Assembly (NCBI GenBank): GCA_934086955.1
Contig: CAKOIN010000006.1
Coordinates: forward strand, 2,159-66,158
Length of the DNA: 64,000 bases
Direction of reading: 5' to 3'
Source of the DNA: an uncultured Bacilli bacterium
Lineage (GTDB): Bacteria > Bacillota_I > Bacilli_A > RF39 > UBA660
Of this stretch, positions 4,690-54,480 are shown one piece after another. The notes under the pieces are model-generated. The model was given only the letters and a program-made list of their open reading frames with translations. It was not told the DNA's origin and searched no databases. The first letter of the stretch is position 1. Every line of letters starts with the position of its first letter. The position numbers and the translations under genes were made by a program.

Positions 4690-7332
4690 CTATTTCTTTT
4701 TTCTTTTTATATATTTATACACTTCCATTACAAAAAGTACAGGTAAAGCCATTATAAATAATGTTAACAAATGTAATGGTGGAACATCATATGTTTGTAA
4801 GAAATTAGAAAGTATAGGAACTTCCATAACTAACATTTGCAACAAAATAGTTCCAACAATAACAATTAATATGAGTGGATTAGTTTTAAAACTGTTATGA
4901 AATACACTCTTACTTTCACTTCTACAATTAAGAACATGTATATTTTGCATGAATACCATTAAAGCAAGAACATAACCACGAGCATGAGCAATCTCAAATC
5001 TTAAAACATCAACTAATAGCCACCATACACCAAATACAATTATTCCGATAAATAAACCAGACAATAATATTTGAATAAGCATTTCTTTTTCAAATAAACT
5101 TTCAGTAGTACTTCTTGGTTTTTCTTTCATAATAGTGTCAGTTTCTCTTTCAAAAGATAAAGCAATATCTTGAAGTCCATCTGTAACCAAATTTAACCAT
5201 AAAAGTTGTATCGCAACTAAAGGAATTGGTAAATTAAATGCAATAGATAATACAAAGAATAATACTTCCGCAAAACCACAAGATAAAAGCATTATAGATA
5301 CTTTTCTAATATTAGAATAAGCATTTCTTCCTTCTTCAATACCAGCTACTATTGATGAAAAATTATCATCAATAATAATCATCTTAGCAGTTTCTTTTGC
5401 AACATCAGTACCACTTCCCATTGCAACACCAATATTAGCAATCTTAATCGCAGGTGCATCATTTACACCATCACCGGTAACCGCAACAAATTCACCTTGT
5501 CTTTGTAAAGATTCAACTATTTTTAATTTTTGAATAGGTGTCACTCTTGCAAAAACAGTTTTATCTTTAACAAAATTATCAAATTTTTCATTATCATCAA
5601 TATAAAAATCTAAATCACTACCAGTACATACTTCATCTTTATTACTTGCAATTTTAAGTTCTTTAGCAATTGCATAAGCAGTAAGAGCATGATCCCCAGT
5701 AATCATAAGAACTTTAATACCTGCATTATGACACTCTGTAACAGAAGCAGCAGCTTCCTTTCTAACTGGATCTATAAATCCAACTAAACCAATAAAATTT
5801 AATTTATTTAAATCTCTTTCATCATACTTTTCTTTTTCTTTTATTTCTTTAGAACATAAAGCAATAACTCTATATCCTTGTGATGCTAATTCATCATTTT
5901 GTTTAAGAATTTTTTCTTTATCAATTTTTTTCTTAACTCCATCAATATAACTATATGAACAAAAATTCAGTATCACTTCAACTGATCCTTTTGCTGTACA
6001 ATACATCTTATCGTCCATTTTAAAGAATACAGCACTATATTTTTTTAAAGATTCATATGGAATAACATCTATTTTTTTAAATTCAGTTTCATTAGTTTTT
6101 AGTTTTCTTGATAAAGCTAAAAATGCAATATCAATAGAATCACCAAACTTTTCCCATTTACCTTTTGATTTTTCAAGCATTGCTTCATTATTAACAAGCC
6201 CTAATATTGATAAATATTTAGCATTTTTAAGTTCAGAACCAGGTTCAGGTATAACTTTACCTACATCATTATATCCATTACCATCTATATTAAATAATTC
6301 CCCATTTGGAAGCATTATTTTTTTAGCAGTTTGTTCATTTACAGTAAGTGTACCAGTTTTATCACTCGCTATAACAGTACAACTTCCTAAACTTTCAACT
6401 GAATTAAGTTTTTTAACAATAACATTCCTTTTACTCATTTTATTAGAAGCTATTGTAAGAGCAAGTGTTAATGATAAAGGTAAACCTTCTGGCATTGCAG
6501 AAACACCAAGAGCTACAACAGATAAAAATATTTCGATTGGTTCATATTGTTTATATATAAGTACAATTGCTATTATTATAGATATAACAACAATCATCAT
6601 AGTAATTTGTTTTGAAAACTTTTCCATTCTAATAGTTAATGGTGATTTACTTTCAGTAGTAGTCGTAACCTTTTCAGCTATCTTACCGACCTCAGTATCA
6701 AGAGCTGTACCACACACAATAGCGAGAGCTCTACCAGTTAAAACAGAAGTGCCAGCATATAACATATTCTTTTTAGAAATATCACCTAAACTTGCTTCAC
6801 CTTCTTCTTTAACTACAGCTATACTTTCACCAGTAAGTATTGATTCATCAACAGTTAAATTATTAGAACTTATTATTCTAGCATCAGCAGATATTTTAGT
6901 GCCAGATTCAAGAACAATAACATCTCCTGGAACAAGAAGCGAAGAATCTATTTCAACATATTCATTATCTCTTATAACTTTAGCTTTAACTTTAATTAAA
7001 TTTTTAAGAGCTTCAGCATTCTTAGTAGCTCTATATTCTTGAATTGTAGACATTACAGCATCAATTAAAATAATAAATATAATAGCCACTGCATCAAGAG
7101 GTTCACCTGCAATAAAAGATAGTATTACTGCTACAATCATAACATAAATAATCGGATCCATAAAAGATTCAATAAACACTTTAAAAATACTTTTCTTCTT
7201 TTCCTTTGGAAGTTCATTATAACCATATTCTTTTAATCTTTTGTTAGCTTCTTTATTAGATAAACCATTTAAAGAAGAATTAAGTTTCTTAATAACCTTC
7301 TTAATATCAATATATTCAAAATCCCTTTTCAC
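4690..7332 (-). CDS. P-type Ca2+-transporting ATPase (P2 type)
   Basis: DKTGTLT phosphorylation motif, TGDGVNDAPA hinge, ten TM segments and a cation-ATPase N-terminus. Confidence 0.8.
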   Translation of the reverse strand: MKRDFEYIDIKKVIKKLNSSLNGLSNKEANKRLKEYGYNELPKEKKKSIFKVFIESFMDPIIYVMIVAVILSFIAGEPLDAVAIIFIILIDAVMSTIQEYRATKNAEALKNLIKVKAKVIRDNEYVEIDSSLLVPGDVIVLESGTKISADARIISSNNLTVDESILTGESIAVVKEEGEASLGDISKKNMLYAGTSVLTGRALAIVCGTALDTEVGKIAEKVTTTTESKSPLTIRMEKFSKQITMMIVVISIIIAIVLIYKQYEPIEIFLSVVALGVSAMPEGLPLSLTLALTIASNKMSKRNVIVKKLNSVESLGSCTVIASDKTGTLTVNEQTAKKIMLPNGELFNIDGNGYNDVGKVIPEPGSELKNAKYLSILGLVNNEAMLEKSKGKWEKFGDSIDIAFLALSRKLKTNETEFKKIDVIPYESLKKYSAVFFKMDDKMYCTAKGSVEVILNFCSYSYIDGVKKKIDKEKILKQNDELASQGYRVIALCSKEIKEKEKYDERDLNKLNFIGLVGFIDPVRKEAAASVTECHNAGIKVLMITGDHALTAYAIAKELKIASNKDEVCTGSDLDFYIDDNEKFDNFVKDKTVFARVTPIQKLKIVESLQRQGEFVAVTGDGVNDAPAIKIANIGVAMGSGTDVAKETAKMIIIDDNFSSIVAGIEEGRNAYSNIRKVSIMLLSCGFAEVLFFVLSIAFNLPIPLVAIQLLWLNLVTDGLQDIALSFERETDTIMKEKPRSTTESLFEKEMLIQILLSGLFIGIIVFGVWWLLVDVLRFEIAHARGYVLALMVFMQNIHVLNCRSESKSVFHNSFKTNPLILIVIVGTILLQMLVMEVPILSNFLQTYDVPPLHLLTLFIMALPVLFVMEVYKYIKRKKK

Positions 7333-10699: not shown

Positions 10700-11131
10700 T
10701 TACTTTACCTCTAATCTTTCTGGTTTTTGAGCTTCATGTTTATGTTCATTACCTGCATATACAAATAATTGTCTATACATATCTCTTCCAAGTCTATTTT
10801 TAGGAAGCATATTTTTAACAGCTCTTTCTACCATTTCTACTGGATATTTTTCTTTCATAGTTCTAGCAGTTCTTTCTCTTAAACCACCTGGATATCCACT
10901 ATGATTATAGTACATTTTTTTGTCTAACTTGTTACCAGTTAAAACAACTTTTTCTGCATTGATAATAATAACATTATCTCCGCAAGCAACATAAGGTGTA
11001 AATGTAGGTTTGTTTTTACCTCTTAATACAGAAGCAGCTAAAGCAGCAACTTTACCTAAAACTTGTCCTTCTGCATCAATTACATACCACTTATGTTCAA
11101 CATCTTCTTTTCTTAACATAAATGTTTTCAT
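10700..11131 (-). CDS. rplM: 50S ribosomal protein L13
   Basis: Canonical L13 sequence. Lies 1 nt upstream of rpsI. Confidence 0.9.
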
Positions 11132-11250
11132 ATTTTAAATTTTTCCCTTCTTTAATTTGAGTGCCATCACATTTGCAACTATGACATTTCTTTCCCACAG
11201 AAACTGCACCCTCTTTAAATGTACCGTGCCTATTATATACTAAAAATACT
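11132..11250 (-). ncRNA. Possible ribosomal-protein L13 leader (structured 5'UTR of rplM-rpsI)
   Basis: A GC-enriched, ORF-free segment of about 120 nt upstream of rplM. L13 leaders are known in Firmicutes. No covariance check was done. Confidence 0.25.
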
Positions 11251-11256
11251 TAATTT

Positions 11257-11305
11257 GTCAATATTTTTTTACCTTGACAATAATATGAATATTATTATAA
11301 AATAA
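11257..11305. promoter_or_regulatory. Divergent promoter region with palindromic -35 (TTGTCAA...TTGACAA)
   Basis: On the plus strand, TTGACA, a 17-nt spacer and TATAAA precede the 11332 CDS. The mirrored TTGACA faces rplM. Confidence 0.4.
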
Positions 11306-11331
11306 ATATGTATAATTAAGGAGAAATTAAA

Positions 11332-12387
11332 ATGAAGAATAAAGGGTTATTAGTCGTATTTATAATACTATTTATATTGTCTGCTTCAGCTGCAGGAATT
11401 GGTTATTATGAACATACCAAAAAAGAACCAGAAGCACCAAATAACAATGATTCAAAAGAAGGAACAATCACATATAAATATTATTTAGAAGATTTAGAAG
11501 TTGAAGAAATGCCTACTAATGAAAAATTATTAGATGACTTAGGAAACGAAACAGATAAATATAAGTATAAATTTTCTAAATTTCAATGTACAGATAGCAC
11601 AATAGCTGGTCAATTCGATGAAGAAACATGGAAATTTATACCAAATGAAGAAAAAGAAGCAACTTGTAACTTATTCTTCGTTAACAGTACATATGAAGTT
11701 ACACTGACTGTAACAAATGGAAAAGCAGATGATAACAATCCTAAATATATAGAAAGAGAAAAAGATGGAGAATTCATAATTATTCCATCAGAAGGATATC
11801 AATTTGAAAGCACACAATGTTCAGATGATAAAACCGCAACATGGAATGAACAAAATAATACATTAACAATTAATGCTATAATGAAAAGTGTAGCATGTAA
11901 AGTTATATTCTCAATTAAAGAATTAAAGATGGATGTAACTGTAGTGAATGGAAAAGGAACAACAACTGAAACAGCTAAATATGGAGAATCTGTTGAAGCA
12001 ATAGTTGAACCAAATGAAGGATATCAAACTCCAACTATAAATTGTACTAATAATCAAAATGCAGAATTCAAAGATAATAAATTAATAATTTCAAAAATAA
12101 CAAATAATACAAAATGTACTTTAACTTTTGAAGCTAAACCAGCAAAAAAATATAACATTAAAATCGATTCTTTACCTGATACAATAACAATTGTAAAAGG
12201 AAGTAAAGAAAACAGTGTTGAAGAAGGAAAAACTGGTTCATTTACTTTAAAAGGGCAAGATGGAATTAAACCAAAACTAGAATGTACTGTTCAACCATCT
12301 AATGAAGATAATGCAAATGGTGAATATACATACACATTCTTAAATGTAACAAAAGATATAACTTGTAAAGTTACAGCAACTGAGTAG
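11332..12387 (+). CDS. Membrane-anchored surface protein with three roughly 80-aa Cys-containing repeats
   Basis: Signal-anchor N-terminus. Three tandem repeats, each ending in C.V.F / C.L.F / C.V.A, with EGYQ motifs, resembling Listeria-Bacteroides-type repeat domains. Confidence 0.4.
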   Translation: MKNKGLLVVFIILFILSASAAGIGYYEHTKKEPEAPNNNDSKEGTITYKYYLEDLEVEEMPTNEKLLDDLGNETDKYKYKFSKFQCTDSTIAGQFDEETWKFIPNEEKEATCNLFFVNSTYEVTLTVTNGKADDNNPKYIEREKDGEFIIIPSEGYQFESTQCSDDKTATWNEQNNTLTINAIMKSVACKVIFSIKELKMDVTVVNGKGTTTETAKYGESVEAIVEPNEGYQTPTINCTNNQNAEFKDNKLIISKITNNTKCTLTFEAKPAKKYNIKIDSLPDTITIVKGSKENSVEEGKTGSFTLKGQDGIKPKLECTVQPSNEDNANGEYTYTFLNVTKDITCKVTATE

Positions 12388-12404
12388 CTATAAGCTACTT
12401 TTTT
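12384..12404 (+). terminator. Hairpin GTAGCT-ATA-AGCTAC followed by TTTTTT, overlapping the stop codon
   Basis: Seen directly in the sequence. Confidence 0.55.
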
Positions 12405-12452
12405 CTTGCAAAAATATTTATAAAATGTTAAATTATCACTGAGGAAAAAAAT

Positions 12453-13469
12453 ATGTGGAAAATAGGAAATGTAGAAATTAAAAATAGAATAGTATTCGCC
12501 CCAATGGCTGGTATATCTAATGAATCATTTAGAAAAATAATTAAATCTATGGATCCAGGACTTATTTATAGTGAAATGATAAGTAACATGGGAATTATAT
12601 ATAATAGTAAAAATACAATAGATATGTTAAAAATAAATAATGAAGAAAGGCCTATTAGCATACAAATATTCGGAAGTGATGAAGAAACATTTATCAAAGC
12701 AGCTAAATATATAGAAGAAAATATACATCCAGATATAATAGATATTAATATGGGATGTCCTGTACCAAAAGTAGCTCTAAAATCACAAGCAGGATCAAAT
12801 CTTTTAAAAAATCCAGATAAAATATATAAAATTGTATCTTCTATAGTAAATACAGTTAATATTCCAGTAACAGTTAAAATTAGAGCTGGTTGGGATAAAA
12901 ACTCAATTAATTGTGTAGAAGTTGCTAAAACAATTGAAAAAGCAGGAGCAAGTGCAATAGCTATACATCCAAGAACAAGAGAACAAGGATACACAGGAAA
13001 TGCTGACTGGACCTTAATTAAAAAAGTTAAAGATGCAGTTAATATTCCTGTTATTGGAAACGGTGATATTAAAACAATTGAAGATGCAAAAAGAATGTTA
13101 GAAGAAACCGGCTGCGATGCAGCTATGATCGGAAGAGCTACAATTGGAAATCCTTGGTTCATAAAAGAATGTGTAGAATATGTTGAAAATGGTAACATTA
13201 TAGATAAACCTACATATAAAGAAAGAATAGATATGTTAGTTAAGCATTATGAAATATTAAAAGAAGACACAAGTCCTAGAAAAGCATTACTTGATATTAA
13301 AACACATGCACTAGCATATCTAAAATATATTCCGAACTCAAAAGAATTAAAACAAGAAATAGCTTGTTCAAAAACAGAAGATGAATTTAATAATTGTATA
13401 AAAAAACTATATAATCACATAAAATGTATAAATTGTGAAAATAATAAAAATACTGACAATTCCTTGTAA
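12453..13469 (+). CDS. dus: tRNA-dihydrouridine synthase (DusB family)
   Basis: [14 protein letters not shown]-terminus and a TIM-barrel FMN-binding pattern. Confidence 0.8.
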
Positions 13470-13511
13470 AGCCAGTATTTTTTGTTATATAATTAAAACA
13501 AGGAGGATTAT

Positions 13512-14933
13512 ATGAAGAAAAGTGGATTATTTAAAATAATCATGTTTATTCTATTTGGAATTGTTATTTTAACTTGGTTCGTATCAGCTGGATATTATAA
13601 TTCAGGCAAATTAGTTGATTTAGGAATGAATCAACTAGGATTCTTTGATTTCTGGCAACTATTATTTGCTTCATTTGGTGGTTCAGATTTTGGATATTTC
13701 GTTCAAATTCTACTATTCTTAATATCAGTTGGAGCTTTATATGGTGTACTTGGCAAAACAGGTAAATATAGAGCAGCAATCGAAAAAATAGCAAACAAAT
13801 TCAAAGGCAATGAACTACATTTCATAGTTATTGTAGCATTCATAATAACAGTACTAACATCAGTATTCAGTTATGAATTATGGTTATTCATTTTCATACC
13901 AGCATTAATAAGTATTATCTTATTACTTGGTTATGATAAAGTAACTGCATGTGTTGCTACATTTGGTGCTATGTTAATTGGTAACATTGGTAGTACTATT
14001 GGTTATAATATAGTAGGTGCTATTCAAGAAAGCTTAGGAATTACTAAACTTTCAAATGGAATCTATTATAGACTTGGAATATTAGCATTTTCATTATTCG
14101 CTTTAATCTTCTATCTTTATAAAGCTAAAAGAACATCTGTTAAAAAAGATGATGTAAAAGCAATTGAAGCAGAAGATTTATTTGCTGGTGAAAGTAAAGC
14201 TAACAAATATTCAGTTGTACCAATAATCGTAATATTCTCAATATTATTTGTATTATTAATATTAGGATGTACTGCTTGGGAATCAACATTCAATGTAAAA
14301 ATATTTACTAAAATGAATGATGCTATTACTAGTTTTGCAATTGGAAAAGATAAATTTACTATATTTGGTAAATTACTTGGAAATGTTAGTGCATTTGGTT
14401 CATGGCATTATGCTGAAATGGCTGTTATGTGTACATTATCAGCATTATTACTTGGTAGATTCTATAGAATGAGTCACAAAGAAACAATAGATAACATGAT
14501 TGATGGAACTAAAAAAATATTAAATTCCGCTGTACTAGTTGTATTAGCTTATACTGTTGTATATTTTGCTTGTAATACAATGACTTATCCAACAATAGCT
14601 GATTTCATACTAAAAGCAACAAGTAAATTTAATATATTCTTTAGTACAATCTGTATGATACTTGGTTCAGTATTACATGTAGATATGTTATATGTAGTTA
14701 ACTATGTTATACCACAAATAGCAGGTCAAAATGTATCAACACTTGTAATGTCATTATTAGCACAAGGTATTTACGGAGTTACAATGTTCGTAGCACCTAC
14801 AAGTGTAGTATTAGTACTAGGACTTAGTTATTTAGGAATTCCTTATAAAGAATGGCTAAAAAGAACTTGGAAACTACTAGTAGCTTTATTAGCAATAGTT
14901 ATGGTAGCAATAATATTAGCTATGTTAATATAA
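13512..14933 (+). CDS. Polytopic membrane transporter, YfcC/DcuC-like family
   Basis: About 12 TM segments. N-terminal region resembles YfcC-family carriers. Confidence 0.35.
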   Translation: MKKSGLFKIIMFILFGIVILTWFVSAGYYNSGKLVDLGMNQLGFFDFWQLLFASFGGSDFGYFVQILLFLISVGALYGVLGKTGKYRAAIEKIANKFKGNELHFIVIVAFIITVLTSVFSYELWLFIFIPALISIILLLGYDKVTACVATFGAMLIGNIGSTIGYNIVGAIQESLGITKLSNGIYYRLGILAFSLFALIFYLYKAKRTSVKKDDVKAIEAEDLFAGESKANKYSVVPIIVIFSILFVLLILGCTAWESTFNVKIFTKMNDAITSFAIGKDKFTIFGKLLGNVSAFGSWHYAEMAVMCTLSALLLGRFYRMSHKETIDNMIDGTKKILNSAVLVVLAYTVVYFACNTMTYPTIADFILKATSKFNIFFSTICMILGSVLHVDMLYVVNYVIPQIAGQNVSTLVMSLLAQGIYGVTMFVAPTSVVLVLGLSYLGIPYKEWLKRTWKLLVALLAIVMVAIILAMLI

Positions 14934-14937
14934 TTAA

Positions 14938-14961
14938 AGAATGAATTTTCATTCTTTTTTT
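14938..14961 (+). terminator. Hairpin AAGAATGAA..TTCATTCTT followed by TTTTT
   Basis: Seen directly after the transporter gene. Confidence 0.55.
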
Positions 14962-14997
14962 ATGCATTAAAAACTAAATAAAACACATAATATTAAT

Positions 14998-16326
14998 ATG
15001 AATAAATATAATGAAACATTAATTAAAATATTAAAAAATAGTGAAAAAGAAGCAAAGAATTTAAATCATCAATATATCGGAACAGAACACTTTATATTAT
15101 CAATATTAAAGATAAATAGTTCTACAAAAGACATATTCAATAATTTAAATATAACATATGAAAAATATTTAAAAGAAATAAATAAAATAATAATAAATTC
15201 AAAACAAACAAATCTAATATCATATACACCTTTATTTAAAAGAATACTAATGTCATTAAACAATAAAAAAGAAATAACAGAAAAAGATGTATTTTTAGAA
15301 ATATTAGAATATGGTGAAGGTATTGGATTATCTATTTTAAGTAATCTAAATATTGACTTAAATAAACTATATAACGAACTATTAAATAATAAACAATATG
15401 AATATGGAATTAATCTTAATGAAATAGTAAACAATAAACAATATGAACCAATAATAGGTAGAAATAAAGAAATAAATGAAATAATTGAAATACTGTTAAG
15501 AAAAAATAAGAATAATCCTTTATTAATTGGTGAACCTGGTATAGGTAAAACAGCACTAGTAGAATCACTCGCATATAAAATAAATAAAAAAGAAGTACCA
15601 AAAGAATTACAAAATAAAAAAATAATATCAATAAATATATCAAAACTAATAAGTGGAACAAGATATAGAGGAGAATTTGAAGAAAAATTTCATAAAATGA
15701 TAGAACATTTCGAACAAAACTCAAATTTAATTATCTTCTTTGATGAAATACATACAATAGTAGGTGCAGGTGGAGCAGAGGGTGCAATAGATGCAGCTAA
15801 TATATTAAAGCCCTATATCGCAAGAAATAAATTAAAAATTATTGGTGCCACAACAACAAAAGAATATTATAAATCAATTTATAATGATGGAGCATTAAAT
15901 AGAAGATTTCAAACAATAATGATTAAAGAACCATCAGAAAAAGAAACTATAAATATATTATTAAATACAAAAAAATATTATGAAAAATTTCATAATGTAC
16001 ATATAACAAATAAACAATTAGAATTAATCGTATCACTATCAACAAAATATATTAAAGATAGATATAATCCAGATAAAAGTTTAGATATGCTAGACAAAAT
16101 ATGTTCAAAAATAAAACTTAAAAACATTATAGATAATGATCAGATTAAAATCAATAAACTTAATAGTCAAAAAATAAACTATATAAAAAATAATGAATTT
16201 AATAAAGCAAAACAAATATCAAATATAATAAATAATTATAAAAAAGATAAATTAAAAATAGATGAATCAACAATTTATGAAGCATTCAACATAACTAAAA
16301 AGAATACCTTTGGTTTTTGTTCATAA
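14998..16326 (+). CDS. ClpC-like ATPase carrying only the Clp_N domain and D1 AAA module (D2 absent)
   Basis: Clp_N repeats, Walker A GEPGIGKT, Walker B IIFFDEIH, ILKPYIARNKLKIIGATT, then a UVR-like tail. The ORF ends at 442 aa with no downstream D2. Confidence 0.55.
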   Translation: MNKYNETLIKILKNSEKEAKNLNHQYIGTEHFILSILKINSSTKDIFNNLNITYEKYLKEINKIIINSKQTNLISYTPLFKRILMSLNNKKEITEKDVFLEILEYGEGIGLSILSNLNIDLNKLYNELLNNKQYEYGINLNEIVNNKQYEPIIGRNKEINEIIEILLRKNKNNPLLIGEPGIGKTALVESLAYKINKKEVPKELQNKKIISINISKLISGTRYRGEFEEKFHKMIEHFEQNSNLIIFFDEIHTIVGAGGAEGAIDAANILKPYIARNKLKIIGATTTKEYYKSIYNDGALNRRFQTIMIKEPSEKETINILLNTKKYYEKFHNVHITNKQLELIVSLSTKYIKDRYNPDKSLDMLDKICSKIKLKNIIDNDQIKINKLNSQKINYIKNNEFNKAKQISNIINNYKKDKLKIDESTIYEAFNITKKNTFGFCS

Positions 16327-16368
16327 ATAATTCACAATTATATGTTATAATTTAATTGGTGATGAGGA

Positions 16369-17049
16369 ATGGATTATTATTATTTAGATGTCATATTAAT
16401 GTTAATAATTATATTATTGCCTTTATATGCTAATATAAAAATAAATATGACTTACAACAAATATTCAAAAAAACAAAATAGCAGAAAACTTACAGGTAAA
16501 GAAGTAGCAGAAAAAATACTAGAAATGAATGGTCTTAGCAATGTAAAAGTTGGTCAAATTGGAGGAAGCTTAACAGATCACTATGATCCTAGAAATAAAA
16601 CAATTAGCTTATCTAGTGATATTTATAGCAACACTTCAATATCAGCTTGTGCAGTAGCAGCACACGAAGTTGGACATGCAATACAAGATAAAGAAAAATA
16701 CAGTATGTTAGTATTTAGAACTAAAATTGTACCACTTGTTAACTTTACATCAAGATTATCAACAGTATTTGTATTCTTAGGTTTCTTCCTAGAATTTATG
16801 AATTTAATTACAATAGGAGCTTTATTATTATCAGTTGGTTTATTCTTTCAATTGATAACTTTACCTGTTGAATTTGATGCTTCAAGAAGAGCAAAAGAAG
16901 AATTACAAAAATGTGGATTAATTGAAAATCAAGATACAAAAGGAGCTAACAAAGTACTAAAAGCAGCAGCATTTACATATGTAGCTGGTTTCCTTGCTTC
17001 TGCACTACAAATAGTAAGGTTACTTCTAATAAGTAGAGATAGAGACTAA
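16369..17049 (+). CDS. Membrane zinc metallopeptidase (Zn_peptidase_2 / YpfJ-like)
   Basis: N-terminal TM, HEVGHAIQ zinc motif, two C-terminal TM segments. Confidence 0.5.
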   Translation: MDYYYLDVILMLIIILLPLYANIKINMTYNKYSKKQNSRKLTGKEVAEKILEMNGLSNVKVGQIGGSLTDHYDPRNKTISLSSDIYSNTSISACAVAAHEVGHAIQDKEKYSMLVFRTKIVPLVNFTSRLSTVFVFLGFFLEFMNLITIGALLLSVGLFFQLITLPVEFDASRRAKEELQKCGLIENQDTKGANKVLKAAAFTYVAGFLASALQIVRLLLISRDRD

Positions 17050-50965: not shown

Positions 50966-51088
50966 TTATTTTGCTAATTCTTTTCTTCCTTTTGCTCTTC
51001 TAGATTTTAATACATTAGTTCCTTTTCTTGCTAAAAATCCAGATGTTTTACTTTTCTTTCTATTATTAGGTTGAAACGTTCTTTTCAT
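50966..51088 (-). CDS. rpmH: 50S ribosomal protein L34
   Basis: Hand-translated minus-strand [43 protein letters not shown]. It is not in the ORF track because it is below 60 aa. Coordinates are accurate to about 1 nt. Confidence 0.85.
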
Positions 51089-51150
51089 AATTTAATCCTC
51101 CATTCCTTCTTTGCTTAATAGATTATAAACTATTGATAATAAAAAGTCAA

Positions 51151-52623
51151 TCATTTGTATTCTATTAAATTTACCAATGAATTTCTAAGTTCTACAAAAT
51201 TTTGATATTTATTTATATATTTATATATATCTTTTAAAAATTCTTCTCCACTTACAATTCTTCCATCTTTTAAATAAACTATAGAATCAATAGAAATTGA
51301 ATCTAATACATTATTTTCTTTAAAATATTCTTTAACAGTAGTTTTTTTGCCATCAAAAGTATCAACAACTTTATTTCCATATTCAATATTTAAAGGAAAC
51401 ATAAATACTTCTTTTTTTGAAAAATCTTCTTCCTCTTTGATATTTAATTCTACTTTATAGTTATTTTTAATAGCAAATTTTAATATTTTATTTACTTCAT
51501 CTAATGGAAATCCCATTTTTTTATAAGCGAAGAATCCACTTGAAAATAATAACATTAATTGATATATATGATCATTATTCATATTTAAAAAATTTAAGTT
51601 TTGAGCAACATTTTTATAGTTATCAGATAAAATCTTACTATATATACTATAAAAATAACTATAATACTTACTACTTTCTTCTTTTTTTATGACATTTTCA
51701 TAAAATTTTGAATATATAGCATTTAAATAATCTTCACTACCAAATGAAATAATCCTTTTATCATCTTTATGTTCAAAATATATCATCTTATCTTCATCTA
51801 ATTTAAGATTAAACTCACTCATTTCAAAACTTCCTATATCTAAAGATGAGTTATAATCAAAAAGCTCAAATACATCTTTATTATTAATAATAATATCTAA
51901 TGTTTTATATATTATTAAAAGCATCCTTTTTTTATTTAATTTTCTTTCTATTTTATACTTATTTAATATATATTCATAATAATCTTTTAATATAGAAAAA
52001 TTTTCAATTTCAAAATTTTCTTTCTTAAAATCACTAAAATATTCGTATAAAAGCAACATATAAAAATTTTTAAAATTATAAGGTCTATATTCAGAAGAAA
52101 TTCCTAACAAATTAGTTTGTGGTATGAAAGGAATTATTCTTGATTTAACTTCATTTTCGATATCATTATCACTTTTAAAGAAATTAATTATCTTTCTTGC
52201 ATTATTTACATTATCCACTCTTATTTGTAAAAGAGGATTTTTAACTACCTTCATTAACTTAATTTTAGAATTTATTTTATTTTCTATTAAAAAATTCAAA
52301 ATTTTTATTGTTATTTTTTCATAATTATTTTCAAAAACTGGTACATCAATTATGATATCAGGTATTGAAACATTCTGTAAATTATATTCTAGGTTTATTT
52401 TATAAGAATATTTAAATTCTTTATATGAGAATTTTGCCTTACTTTCGGGCAAAATTGACAATATCTGTTCAAATATTTTTTTGGTTATTTGAATTATATT
52501 TTTATTTAAATCACCTATTTTTACATTAAAACTTAAACATGTATTTATAAATTCTTCAAAATTTTTTTGTTCATAAATTGTATATAACTTTTTAAAATAA
52601 TCTTCTATCTGCATTCTATCCAT
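51151..52623 (-). CDS. Hypothetical 490-aa protein inserted between rpmH and dnaA
   Basis: Long uninterrupted ORF with no motif recognisable by eye. Its position interrupts the normally adjacent rpmH-oriC-dnaA arrangement. Confidence 0.35.
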   Translation of the reverse strand: MDRMQIEDYFKKLYTIYEQKNFEEFINTCLSFNVKIGDLNKNIIQITKKIFEQILSILPESKAKFSYKEFKYSYKINLEYNLQNVSIPDIIIDVPVFENNYEKITIKILNFLIENKINSKIKLMKVVKNPLLQIRVDNVNNARKIINFFKSDNDIENEVKSRIIPFIPQTNLLGISSEYRPYNFKNFYMLLLYEYFSDFKKENFEIENFSILKDYYEYILNKYKIERKLNKKRMLLIIYKTLDIIINNKDVFELFDYNSSLDIGSFEMSEFNLKLDEDKMIYFEHKDDKRIISFGSEDYLNAIYSKFYENVIKKEESSKYYSYFYSIYSKILSDNYKNVAQNLNFLNMNNDHIYQLMLLFSSGFFAYKKMGFPLDEVNKILKFAIKNNYKVELNIKEEEDFSKKEVFMFPLNIEYGNKVVDTFDGKKTTVKEYFKENNVLDSISIDSIVYLKDGRIVSGEEFLKDIYKYINKYQNFVELRNSLVNLIEYK

Positions 52624-52659
52624 ATTTATCTTCTCTCCTACACCATTTTATCATAAAAA

Positions 52660-52850
52660 AAATATTATGTTAACTTATTTTTGAATTTATTATGTTAACT
52701 TTATCAACAATGTATCAACATTTTATGTTAACTTATCAACAAGTTATTAACAATTCAAGTTTACATAATAATTTTAAATTGTTGATATTGTTGATAACTA
52801 TAAAAAATAATCTAAATTAAAGGAAAAAAATGTTTACAAAATGTGGATAT
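52660..52850. promoter_or_regulatory. oriC DnaA-box cluster upstream of dnaA
   Basis: TTATCAACA at about 52701 and 52733, GTATCAACA at about 52712, the complement TGTTGATAA at about 52789, TGTGGATAT at about 52841, and TATGTTAAC repeated three times. Confidence 0.6.
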
Positions 52851-52950
52851 CTTGTTAATATAAGTGTTAATAAATTTTTTTGTTTTGACATTAAAAAAAG
52901 TTGATTTATAATTTATCTTAGAAAGACAAAAAGAAAGGAAGTAAATATAT

Positions 52951-54342: not shown

Positions 54343-54480
54343 ATTAACAAGTTACTAACATCTTAACAACGATAAGTTTACATAAAAATGTAGTATTTAT
54401 CGTATTATAAATGAGTTATCAACAATATTAACACTCTATAATAATAATAAATATATATAATAATAAGGAGGAAGAAAATT
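54343..54480. promoter_or_regulatory. dnaA-dnaN intergenic DnaA box(es) plus AT-rich unwinding element
   Basis: GAGTTATCAACAATATT box followed by ATAATAATAAATATATATAATAATAA. Confidence 0.45.

Follow-up and report, generated by a model that had tools for sequence, protein, structure and literature searches.

A clade-specific gene between rpmH and dnaA in uncultured gut Bacilli and the predicted lyase-type fold of its product

The phospho-Ser/Thr lyases of the HopA1/LanY/LanKC/OspF superfamily rely on a small set of residues (PMC9486802, PMC10604976). The base is a lysine (SpvC K136, ThurKC K94, CaoY K219), a second basic residue that contacts the enolate or the phosphate is essential in mutagenesis (SpvC K104, ThurKC K65, CaoY R187), the acid is a histidine (SpvC H106, ThurKC H67) whose equivalent is absent from the LanY enzymes, and R148-type basic residues and D201 of SpvC are further contributors. 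The degree to which accepted members of this superfamily resemble each other (PMC10604976) is similar to that of the aligned cores described below. The other system of reference is the bipartite replication origin of the Bacillus subtilis type, with DnaA boxes on both sides of dnaA, an AT-rich stretch before dnaN and a switch in GC skew (reviewed in PMC4285127). Here we describe an open reading frame (ORF) of 490 codons that lies between rpmH and dnaA in an uncultured Bacilli bacterium and whose product probably has the lyase-type fold over its first half. The analysis covers 64,000 nucleotides of contig CAKOIN010000006.1 (positions 2,159 to 66,158; assembly GCA_934086955.1), hereafter the window. 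The origin of this genome resembles that of B. subtilis in all the traits just listed, but rpmH and the upstream boxes are set apart by a gene of 1.47 kb, the boxes are accompanied by an extra repeat, TTATGTTAACTT, and in the dnaN-recF interval comK takes the place of the usual small gene.

The long, uninterrupted minus-strand frame noted in a first-pass annotation of this DNA is indeed present. Since TGA serves as its stop codon, genetic code 11 applies. The gene order continues beyond rpmH with rnpA, yidC, jag and mnmE, and beyond dnaA with dnaN, a ComK-family gene and recF; the spacers measure 62 bp (rpmH-ORF) and 327 bp (ORF-dnaA). At roughly 52-53 kb of the window, the GC skew goes over to the opposite sign, which places the origin at the ORF/dnaA region. 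In Firmicutes, the position between dnaN and recF is usually occupied by a small yaaA/rlbA gene; the ComK-family gene is found there in the window and in all related loci, including the lineage that lacks the ORF. The dnaA-rpmH junction is not strictly gene-free even in Escherichia coli K-12, where ysdD (26 aa) is annotated between both genes (NC_000913, 3884026-3884106; locus L041 of our set).

The ORF is a genuine, clade-specific gene. A search of 5.8 billion proteins retrieved 57 homologous clusters with 39-93% identity, nearly all of them 487-490 aa long and devoid of a Pfam tag or a name, and the family is small, since an exhaustive search of 1.84 billion representatives found merely 43 relatives. 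Full-length members keep a length of 480-493 aa over an identity range of 31-93%. The ratio of nonsynonymous to synonymous substitution rates (dN/dS) between the ORF and its orthologues is 0.078 (L004), about 0.20 (L005 and L014) and 0.33 (L006), compared to 0.00-0.13 for dnaA in the same genome pairs; the gene is thus under purifying selection and evolves about three times faster than dnaA. Its GC content (18.5%, and 11% at third codon positions, GC3) lies within the range of the neighbouring genes, and the matching GC3 gives no sign of a recent foreign origin. Family searches with the protein in Pfam, NCBIfam, PADLOC and PHROGs produced nothing significant, tblastn against phages and plasmids gave no match, and when the distant paralogs discussed below served as queries for another round of database searching, no new relatives and no Pfam-tagged sequence came up. 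Two marginal similarities were rejected. A match of residues 305-386 to the Pfam family ARM_TT21_2nd (E = 2.4e-5), which at 24.4 bits misses the 27-bit cut-off, was put down to helical or low-complexity similarity, and PDB phmmer matches to eL22 (E = 0.02-0.15) were put down to chance.

All the genome matches are uncultured, low-GC metagenome-assembled genomes from the gut ("Bacilli/Mollicutes-like"). Mycoplasmatota bacterium SUG767 has an ORF that is 93% identical to that of the window and an identical DnaA (100%), Clostridium sp. CAG:524 has an ORF that is 76% identical, and other matches are labelled "Bacilli bacterium" or "Mollicutes bacterium"; a literature search on the clade name CAG-524 matched no papers. 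The synteny comparison proposed in the first-pass annotation shows that the slot of the ORF is constant: at every locus with a full-length homologue (at least 21, down to 31% identity), recF-comK-dnaN-dnaA stands on one side and ORF-rpmH-rnpA-yidC on the other. The same annotation had considered that same-position homologues with a known housekeeping function would speak against its interpretation; the homologues do share the position across the clade, but none of them has a known housekeeping function.

A search with DnaA led to two related lineages, each represented on very many contigs, in which the gene is missing or shortened. In the first one (L039 and L040, DnaA 76% identical), a non-coding spacer of 554 bp is all that lies between rpmH and dnaA; tblastn detected no remnant of the ORF in this spacer of L039, and both loci retain the DnaA-box cluster, three copies of a TTATGTTAAC element and the order dnaN-comK-recF. 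In the second one (L037 and L038, DnaA 74% identical), the protein is a 382-aa version that stops near residue 389, short of the last domain, and the homologue P0059 also ends at about residue 389. L037 additionally carries an unrelated 139-aa ORF without Pfam hit (L037:2797-3216, minus strand) and about 300 bp between the 382-aa gene and rpmH; the DnaA protein of L038 is identical to that of L037, but L038 lacks this insert, which is thus an insertion polymorphism at the junction. A neighbour-joining tree of DnaA and DnaN (795 ungapped columns, 200 bootstraps, E. coli as outgroup) groups the ORF-less L039 with ORF-bearing lineages at 90% support and leaves the ORF-bearing L015/L017, L030 and L028 outside this group. 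The method is a simple one based on distances, the outgroup is very remote and the internal nodes near L039 and L037 have 42-50% support, and the argument on gain and loss uses the 90% split alone. Since the ORF-less lineage is nested among ORF-bearing ones, the parsimonious reading is that the gene was gained once, in the ancestor, and later lost once and truncated at least once. It follows that this is an old and fixed gene with vertical inheritance, yet a dispensable one, as its outright loss in one nested lineage and its C-terminal truncation in another demonstrate, and it is no core component of the origin. Conversely, the architecture of the origin is independent of the ORF: its presence or absence makes no difference to the box cluster or to the dnaA promoter. 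The insertion at a conserved junction that had been suggested for this ORF is thus correct in substance, the slot being the same in all full-length homologues, but not if it is taken to be recent or mobile. The insertion of a mobile element or a defence island was rejected on the grounds of the lack of phage, plasmid and defence homologues, the native GC3 and the vertical inheritance at a single site.

An AlphaFold2 model based on an alignment of 23 sequences (predicted local distance difference test, pLDDT, 85.9; predicted template modelling score 0.69) describes what is predicted to be a cytoplasmic, three-part protein. When the whole model was compared to the PDB with Foldseek, ranks 1 to 22 all belonged to the HopA1/LanY/LanKC/OspF superfamily: the lyase domains of the class III lanthipeptide synthetases ThurKC, CuvL, PneKC and SalKC, as well as LxmY, HopA1, SpvC, OspF and VirA (E = 0.04-0.4, probability 0.85-1.0, aligned cores of 131-160 residues at 3.0-4.5 Å). 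Residues 1-258 are therefore likely to have this fold, and the absence of any recognisable motif that had been reported for this ORF holds for sequence searches but not for structure prediction. The folds of the middle and C-terminal parts were not recognised: the C-terminal half (aa 259-490) modelled separately with a pLDDT of 87.5 but had no Foldseek match in the PDB (best E = 1.3), and neither Pfam nor Foldseek revealed a kinase or cyclase domain in it. Foldseek of the whole model against a viral library gave nothing. The isoelectric point (pI) is 9.0 for the N-terminal domain, which is basic, and 7.5 for the whole protein.

The candidate active site was examined by counting residues over 82 family proteins, the origin-linked members being compared to eight paralogs located elsewhere in their genomes. 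In SpvC, the site is laid out as a strand (D-K104-F-H106-I-S-V), a helix, a second strand (W-K136-V) and a basic loop, and the ORF family has the same order and spacing. The distant paralogs read I-K-L-Y-V-P, a helix, S-K-L, R and V-R-V, with a universal acidic residue later on. At position 91, Lys is found in all seven of the eight paralogs that align here but in only 4 of 69 origin-linked proteins, 55 of which have Ile, like the window protein. Position 93 is Tyr in six of seven paralogs and Asp in 59 of 69 origin-linked proteins, again including that of the window. Lys 122, the candidate base, is found in 62/71 origin-linked proteins, including that of the window, and in 7/8 paralogs, although it is replaced by R (three members), S (two), Y (one) or I (one). 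Positions 128 and 135 are mostly basic in both sets, and position 178 is Glu or Asp in all the origin-linked proteins and Asp in all the paralogs. The origin-linked proteins also have near-invariant residues of their own (K125, N129, S161, R162, K185, N230 and R233). The window protein thus has Ile in place of the basic residue equivalent to SpvC K104, and Asp in place of the catalytic-acid His. In our reading of these alignments, the paralogs look like plausible lyase-type enzymes and the site of the origin-linked branch has been remodelled. Since mutants of the K104A and R187A type are inactive, the window protein is unlikely to work as a canonical lyase.

The resemblance to the described systems is accordingly uneven. 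The best Foldseek matches are the lyase domains of the class III LanKC enzymes such as ThurKC (131-160 columns at 3.0-4.0 Å), with which the protein shares the succession strand (K-x-H/Y), helix, strand (K), basic loop and strand; unlike the class III and IV LanKC/LanL enzymes, it has neither a kinase nor a LanC-like cyclase domain, no precursor peptide gene accompanies it, and ThurKC K65 and H67 correspond to Ile and Asp. Residues 1-258 also resemble HopA1 (PF17914; PDB 4RSW, template modelling score 0.56 over 264 columns) and the class V dehydratase LxmY (9DK1, 145-155 columns at 3.3-4.5 Å). As in the LanY enzymes, CaoY included, there is no equivalent of SpvC H106 and the candidate catalytic Lys follows about 31 residues after the first strand motif. 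Nevertheless, the essential Arg/Lys of that first motif is Ile here, the LanK kinase partner, the type III secretion context and the cluster for RiPPs (peptides that are ribosomally synthesized and then modified post-translationally) are missing, no APH-like kinase gene adjoins the ORF as in class V LanK-LanY systems, and the protein has an extra C-terminal region of 230 residues with an unrecognised fold and a fixed place beside oriC. OspF and SpvC (2Z8P, 2Q8Y, 3I0U; Foldseek ranks 10-20) belong to the same fold superfamily, and the K-x-Y...K...R...D pattern of the non-origin paralogs parallels SpvC K104-x-H106...K136...R148...D201, but no similarity is detectable at the sequence level, the structures superpose poorly overall (root-mean-square deviation of about 14 Å), the K104 and H106 equivalents are missing from the window protein, and the latter is not a secreted effector. 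On the strength of the model, the window protein would be at most HopA1/LanY/OspF-like in fold and is no demonstrable member of those families.

The few distant paralogs (23-27% identity over the N-terminal domain) come from spore-forming Firmicutes and lie away from the origin. P0097 is flanked by topA and a release-factor gene, P0090, whose gene is interrupted, follows rarA/mgsA, P0098 follows rmuC, and P0094 is near cdaA, just downstream of a NUDIX gene. The DNA-metabolism genes among these neighbours are suggestive, but they are too few and too unsystematic to be given weight. At three of the four loci, a strongly acidic ORF of 49-58 aa abuts the paralog upstream (L023:4929-5105, L022:5821-5970, L035:4517-4678), and both genes may form a two-gene cassette; no such small acidic ORF is found upstream of the window ORF.

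The DnaA boxes were defined as TTATCCACA with at most one mismatch. The 327-bp ORF-dnaA spacer contains four of them (12.2 per kb, compared to 0.5 per kb in the window) and four additional ones at two mismatches, the 62-bp rpmH-ORF spacer contains none, and the dnaA-dnaN spacer contains one. The search inside the ORF that the first-pass annotation called for yielded one site at one mismatch (0.7 per kb), which is the chance level; its statement that the cluster is confined to the ORF-dnaA spacer is thus borne out, a smaller second element being present between dnaA and dnaN. This second element combines the box at 54416 with an AT-rich AAT/TAA run that, judged by eye, looks like an unwinding element; with it, the origin is a bipartite one of the Bacillus type. 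Among the related loci, the ORF-dnaA spacer has a nearly constant length (300-373 bp) and one to six boxes in 17 of 19 cases, the exceptions being L028 and L029, which have none at this threshold. In the spacer of these two loci (4701-5000; P0064, ORF 35% identical), TTATTAACA-like boxes are seemingly used instead of TTATCCACA. The ORF-rpmH spacer measures 62-69 bp in most related loci and has boxes in none. An alignment of the ORF-dnaA spacers (A5) shows strong conservation of the dnaA promoter, the box array, the repeated TTATGTTAAC element and a promoter-like element that faces the ORF; the near-consensus rpmH promoter element of the window recurs in L038 and L039. An Rfam search of the spacers gave no match.

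The 12-mer TTATGTTAACTT, which reads AAGTTWACATAA on the opposite strand, is almost confined to the origin: the two oriC spacers hold five of its six matches in the window and all those in 19 related loci. The related loci surveyed for it fall within L001-L032, with L039 in addition. Its copies often directly adjoin a DnaA box, at a phasing of 10 bp. The 12-mer may serve as a DnaA site of low affinity, as a -35-like element or as a site for another factor. The idea that the ORF product binds it is weakened by its distribution, as L039 has the repeat without the ORF and L028, like L029, has the ORF without the repeat.

Several scenarios may explain these observations. The one that we favour, with a confidence that for the whole package is just on the better side of even, combines a history, a biochemical proposal and a mode of expression. 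The gene was inserted between rpmH and the upstream half of the DnaA boxes in an ancestor of this clade of uncultured, small-genome, low-GC gut Bacilli. The boxes and the dnaA promoter stayed with dnaA in the conserved spacer, rpmH runs from its own promoter, and the gene has since passed down vertically under purifying selection, with loss in one nested lineage and truncation in another. Since the paralogs keep the K-x-Y...K...R...D pattern while the origin-linked family has changed the first Lys to Ile and the Tyr to Asp and has fixed new invariant polar residues, the latter appears to be a neofunctionalised derivative. Its product would most likely bind a phosphorylated protein or peptide ligand, or carry out a non-canonical elimination on one, rather than act as a canonical lyase. 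Finally, the candidate promoters beside and within the box array, at the earliest-replicated locus, would tie the expression of the ORF to DnaA occupancy and to the gene dosage of the origin. The historical part of this scenario is far more secure than the biochemical one. Several points weigh against the scenario as a whole: the fold assignment depends on a model from just 23 sequences and on weak Foldseek E-values; PF17914 does not match the ORF protein at E ≤ 10, nor its distant relatives; the family profile found nothing in the PDB; hhalign of the N-terminal domain profile against SpvC gave a probability of 0.05; the residue equivalences come from motif spacing and the order of predicted secondary structures, not from superposition; the candidate promoter and its coupling to DnaA are inferred at the level of consensus sequences; and the gene, although dispensable in one lineage, may still have a modulatory role at the origin in the others.

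Such a role was one of the interpretations initially offered for this ORF. An origin-associated factor that binds DnaA, the DnaA-box region or the clade-specific repeat and modulates initiation would explain the retention of the gene beside oriC, and it would agree with a position next to the boxes that is invariant over deep divergence, with the location of the candidate promoters, with the confinement of the repeat to both oriC spacers, with the basic N-terminal domain and with the paralogs that lie just downstream of topA, rarA/mgsA or rmuC. Yet L039 and L040 preserve the box cluster, the TTATGTTAAC copies and the gene order without the ORF or any remnant of it, L028 and L029 show that the ORF and the repeat have no obligate co-occurrence, and loss or truncation of the gene marks the two related DnaA lineages with the largest number of contigs. 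Moreover, Pfam, NCBIfam, PDB phmmer and Foldseek disclose neither a DNA-binding fold nor a likeness in sequence or fold to YabA, SirA, Soj, DnaD, HobA/DiaA or SeqA-type regulators, the whole protein has a pI of only 7.5, and the synteny around oriC is conserved anyway, so that position alone is weak evidence. Nothing shows the protein at work on the origin, and we deem this interpretation distinctly unlikely. A combination of both ideas, in which the lyase-fold protein would act on initiation by binding, or by irreversibly modifying, DnaA or some other phosphorylated protein of initiation or of the cell cycle and have its own level set by DnaA through the adjacent boxes, seems improbable indeed; if true, it would represent a new, lineage-specific class of initiation modulator, and the lineages without the gene would have rewired this control.

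The remaining explanations concern the activity of the protein. It could be an active phospho-Ser/Thr lyase that, with an unlinked Ser/Thr kinase, dehydrates a protein or peptide substrate as LanK and LanY do. The fold match does include LxmY and the LanKC lyase domains, the candidate base K122, the basic residues 128 and 135 and the acidic residue 178 are retained, and the LanY enzymes likewise do without the His (PMC9486802). Nevertheless, the first basic residue is essential in both SpvC and CaoY and is Ile in most origin-linked proteins, K122 itself is replaced in several members, there are no kinase, precursor-peptide or RiPP genes near the ORF and the C-terminal half contains no kinase fold, which makes this explanation unlikely. 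It is less likely still that the gene was once half of a two-gene cassette, of a conflict, toxin-antitoxin-like or enzyme-inhibitor kind, that paired a tiny acidic protein with a lyase-fold protein; after landing at the origin, it would have lost its partner and its activity and now be a domesticated remnant with a minor function or none. The acidic ORFs beside three of the four paralogs, their absence from the origin-linked family together with the loss of the K-x-Y motif, the fast evolution, the sporadic loss and truncation and the other insertions accepted by the junction, such as the 139-aa ORF, would all fit. However, a dN/dS of 0.08-0.33 and the newly invariant residues speak for a function that has been maintained, PADLOC and PHROGs gave no matches, and nothing supports a toxin-system nature for the cassette of the paralogs. 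As for a spurious or decaying ORF without a protein product, which the very low GC content and the lack of an annotated family might suggest, it is effectively refuted: a 490-codon open frame is very unlikely to occur by chance in 19%-GC DNA, the length is conserved, dN/dS is well below 1 and the predicted structure is confident.

Whatever its activity, this gene shows that the rpmH-dnaA junction is not inviolable: an extra gene has been carried there through deep divergence in one gut clade, with orthologues down to 31% identity, and the junction has tolerated further insertion, truncation and clean loss while the DnaA-box architecture remained undisturbed. If the predicted fold is right, the family adds an uncharacterised branch to the HopA1/OspF/LanY fold, outside the settings of type III effectors and RiPP dehydratases. 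Should the protein touch phospho-signalling or replication control, it would offer an entry point into abundant uncultured gut bacteria with small genomes. At present, the fold gives a lead on what is otherwise a conserved hypothetical protein, and none of the evidence points to a new mechanism.

Table 1. Features of the rpmH-dnaA region in the window (a dot stands for features without strand; aa, residues of the ORF product)
Feature	Coordinates	Strand	Details
ORF (490 aa, 490 codons)	51151..52623	-	ATG start, uninterrupted, TGA stop at 51151-51153; clade-specific protein
rpmH (ribosomal protein L34)	50966..51088	-	flanks the ORF
dnaA	52951..54342	+	flanks the ORF on the other side
ComK-family gene	55682/55724-56182	+	PF06338, E = 2.6e-45; between dnaN and recF
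N-terminal domain, aa 1-258	51850..52623	-	AlphaFold2 and Foldseek; candidate site residues I91, D93, K122, K128, R135, E178
Middle domain, aa 259-395	51439..51849	-	predicted beta-hairpin followed by a four-helix bundle; most conserved motifs YSKFYENVIKK and SSxFFAYKK
Acidic linker, aa 396-406			low confidence in the model; joins the middle and C-terminal domains
C-terminal small alpha/beta domain, aa 407-490	51154..51405	-	AlphaFold2 models; missing from the 382-aa natural variants
Upstream oriC DnaA-box cluster	52701..52873	.	boxes at 52701, 52712, 52733, 52744, 52780, 52789, 52842 and 52865
Candidate ORF promoter	52645..52673	-	TTAACA, 17 bp, TG-n-TAAAAT; promoter scan and spacer alignment A5; conserved clade-wide
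Second candidate ORF promoter	52718-52689	-	promoter scan; overlaps DnaA boxes
dnaA promoter	52885..52912	+	TTGACA, 16 bp, TATAAT; 12/12 matches; conserved in alignment A5
rpmH own promoter, near-consensus	51122..51150	-	TTGACT, 17 bp, TATAAT; in the ORF-rpmH spacer, begins directly after the ORF stop codon
Origin-specific 12-mer repeat TTATGTTAACTT	52665..52768	.	exact at 52665-52676, 52690-52701 and 52723-52734 (+); inverted with one mismatch at 52757-52768 (-)
dnaA-dnaN spacer, second oriC half	54343..54480	.	one AAGTTTACATAA motif at 54374-54385 (-); DnaA box at 54416, then ATATTAACA; AT-rich AAT/TAA run at about 54433-54465

Elsewhere in the window, three structured RNAs were identified: a small signal recognition particle RNA (RF00169, 62687-62783, plus strand, 61 bits), a PGK RNA motif (RF03040, 30160-30252, minus strand, 82 bits) and an ornate large extremophilic (OLE) RNA (RF01071, 21939-22419, plus strand, 219 bits, E = 1.9e-60). 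The last one coincides with a local reversal of the GC skew and is an unexpected match for a gut bacterium with a small genome. At 11000-17000, the plus strand carries a block of five ORFs (226-473 aa) where the GC skew is positive, within a left replichore that is otherwise on the minus strand and of negative skew; they may correspond to an inverted or head-on gene block.

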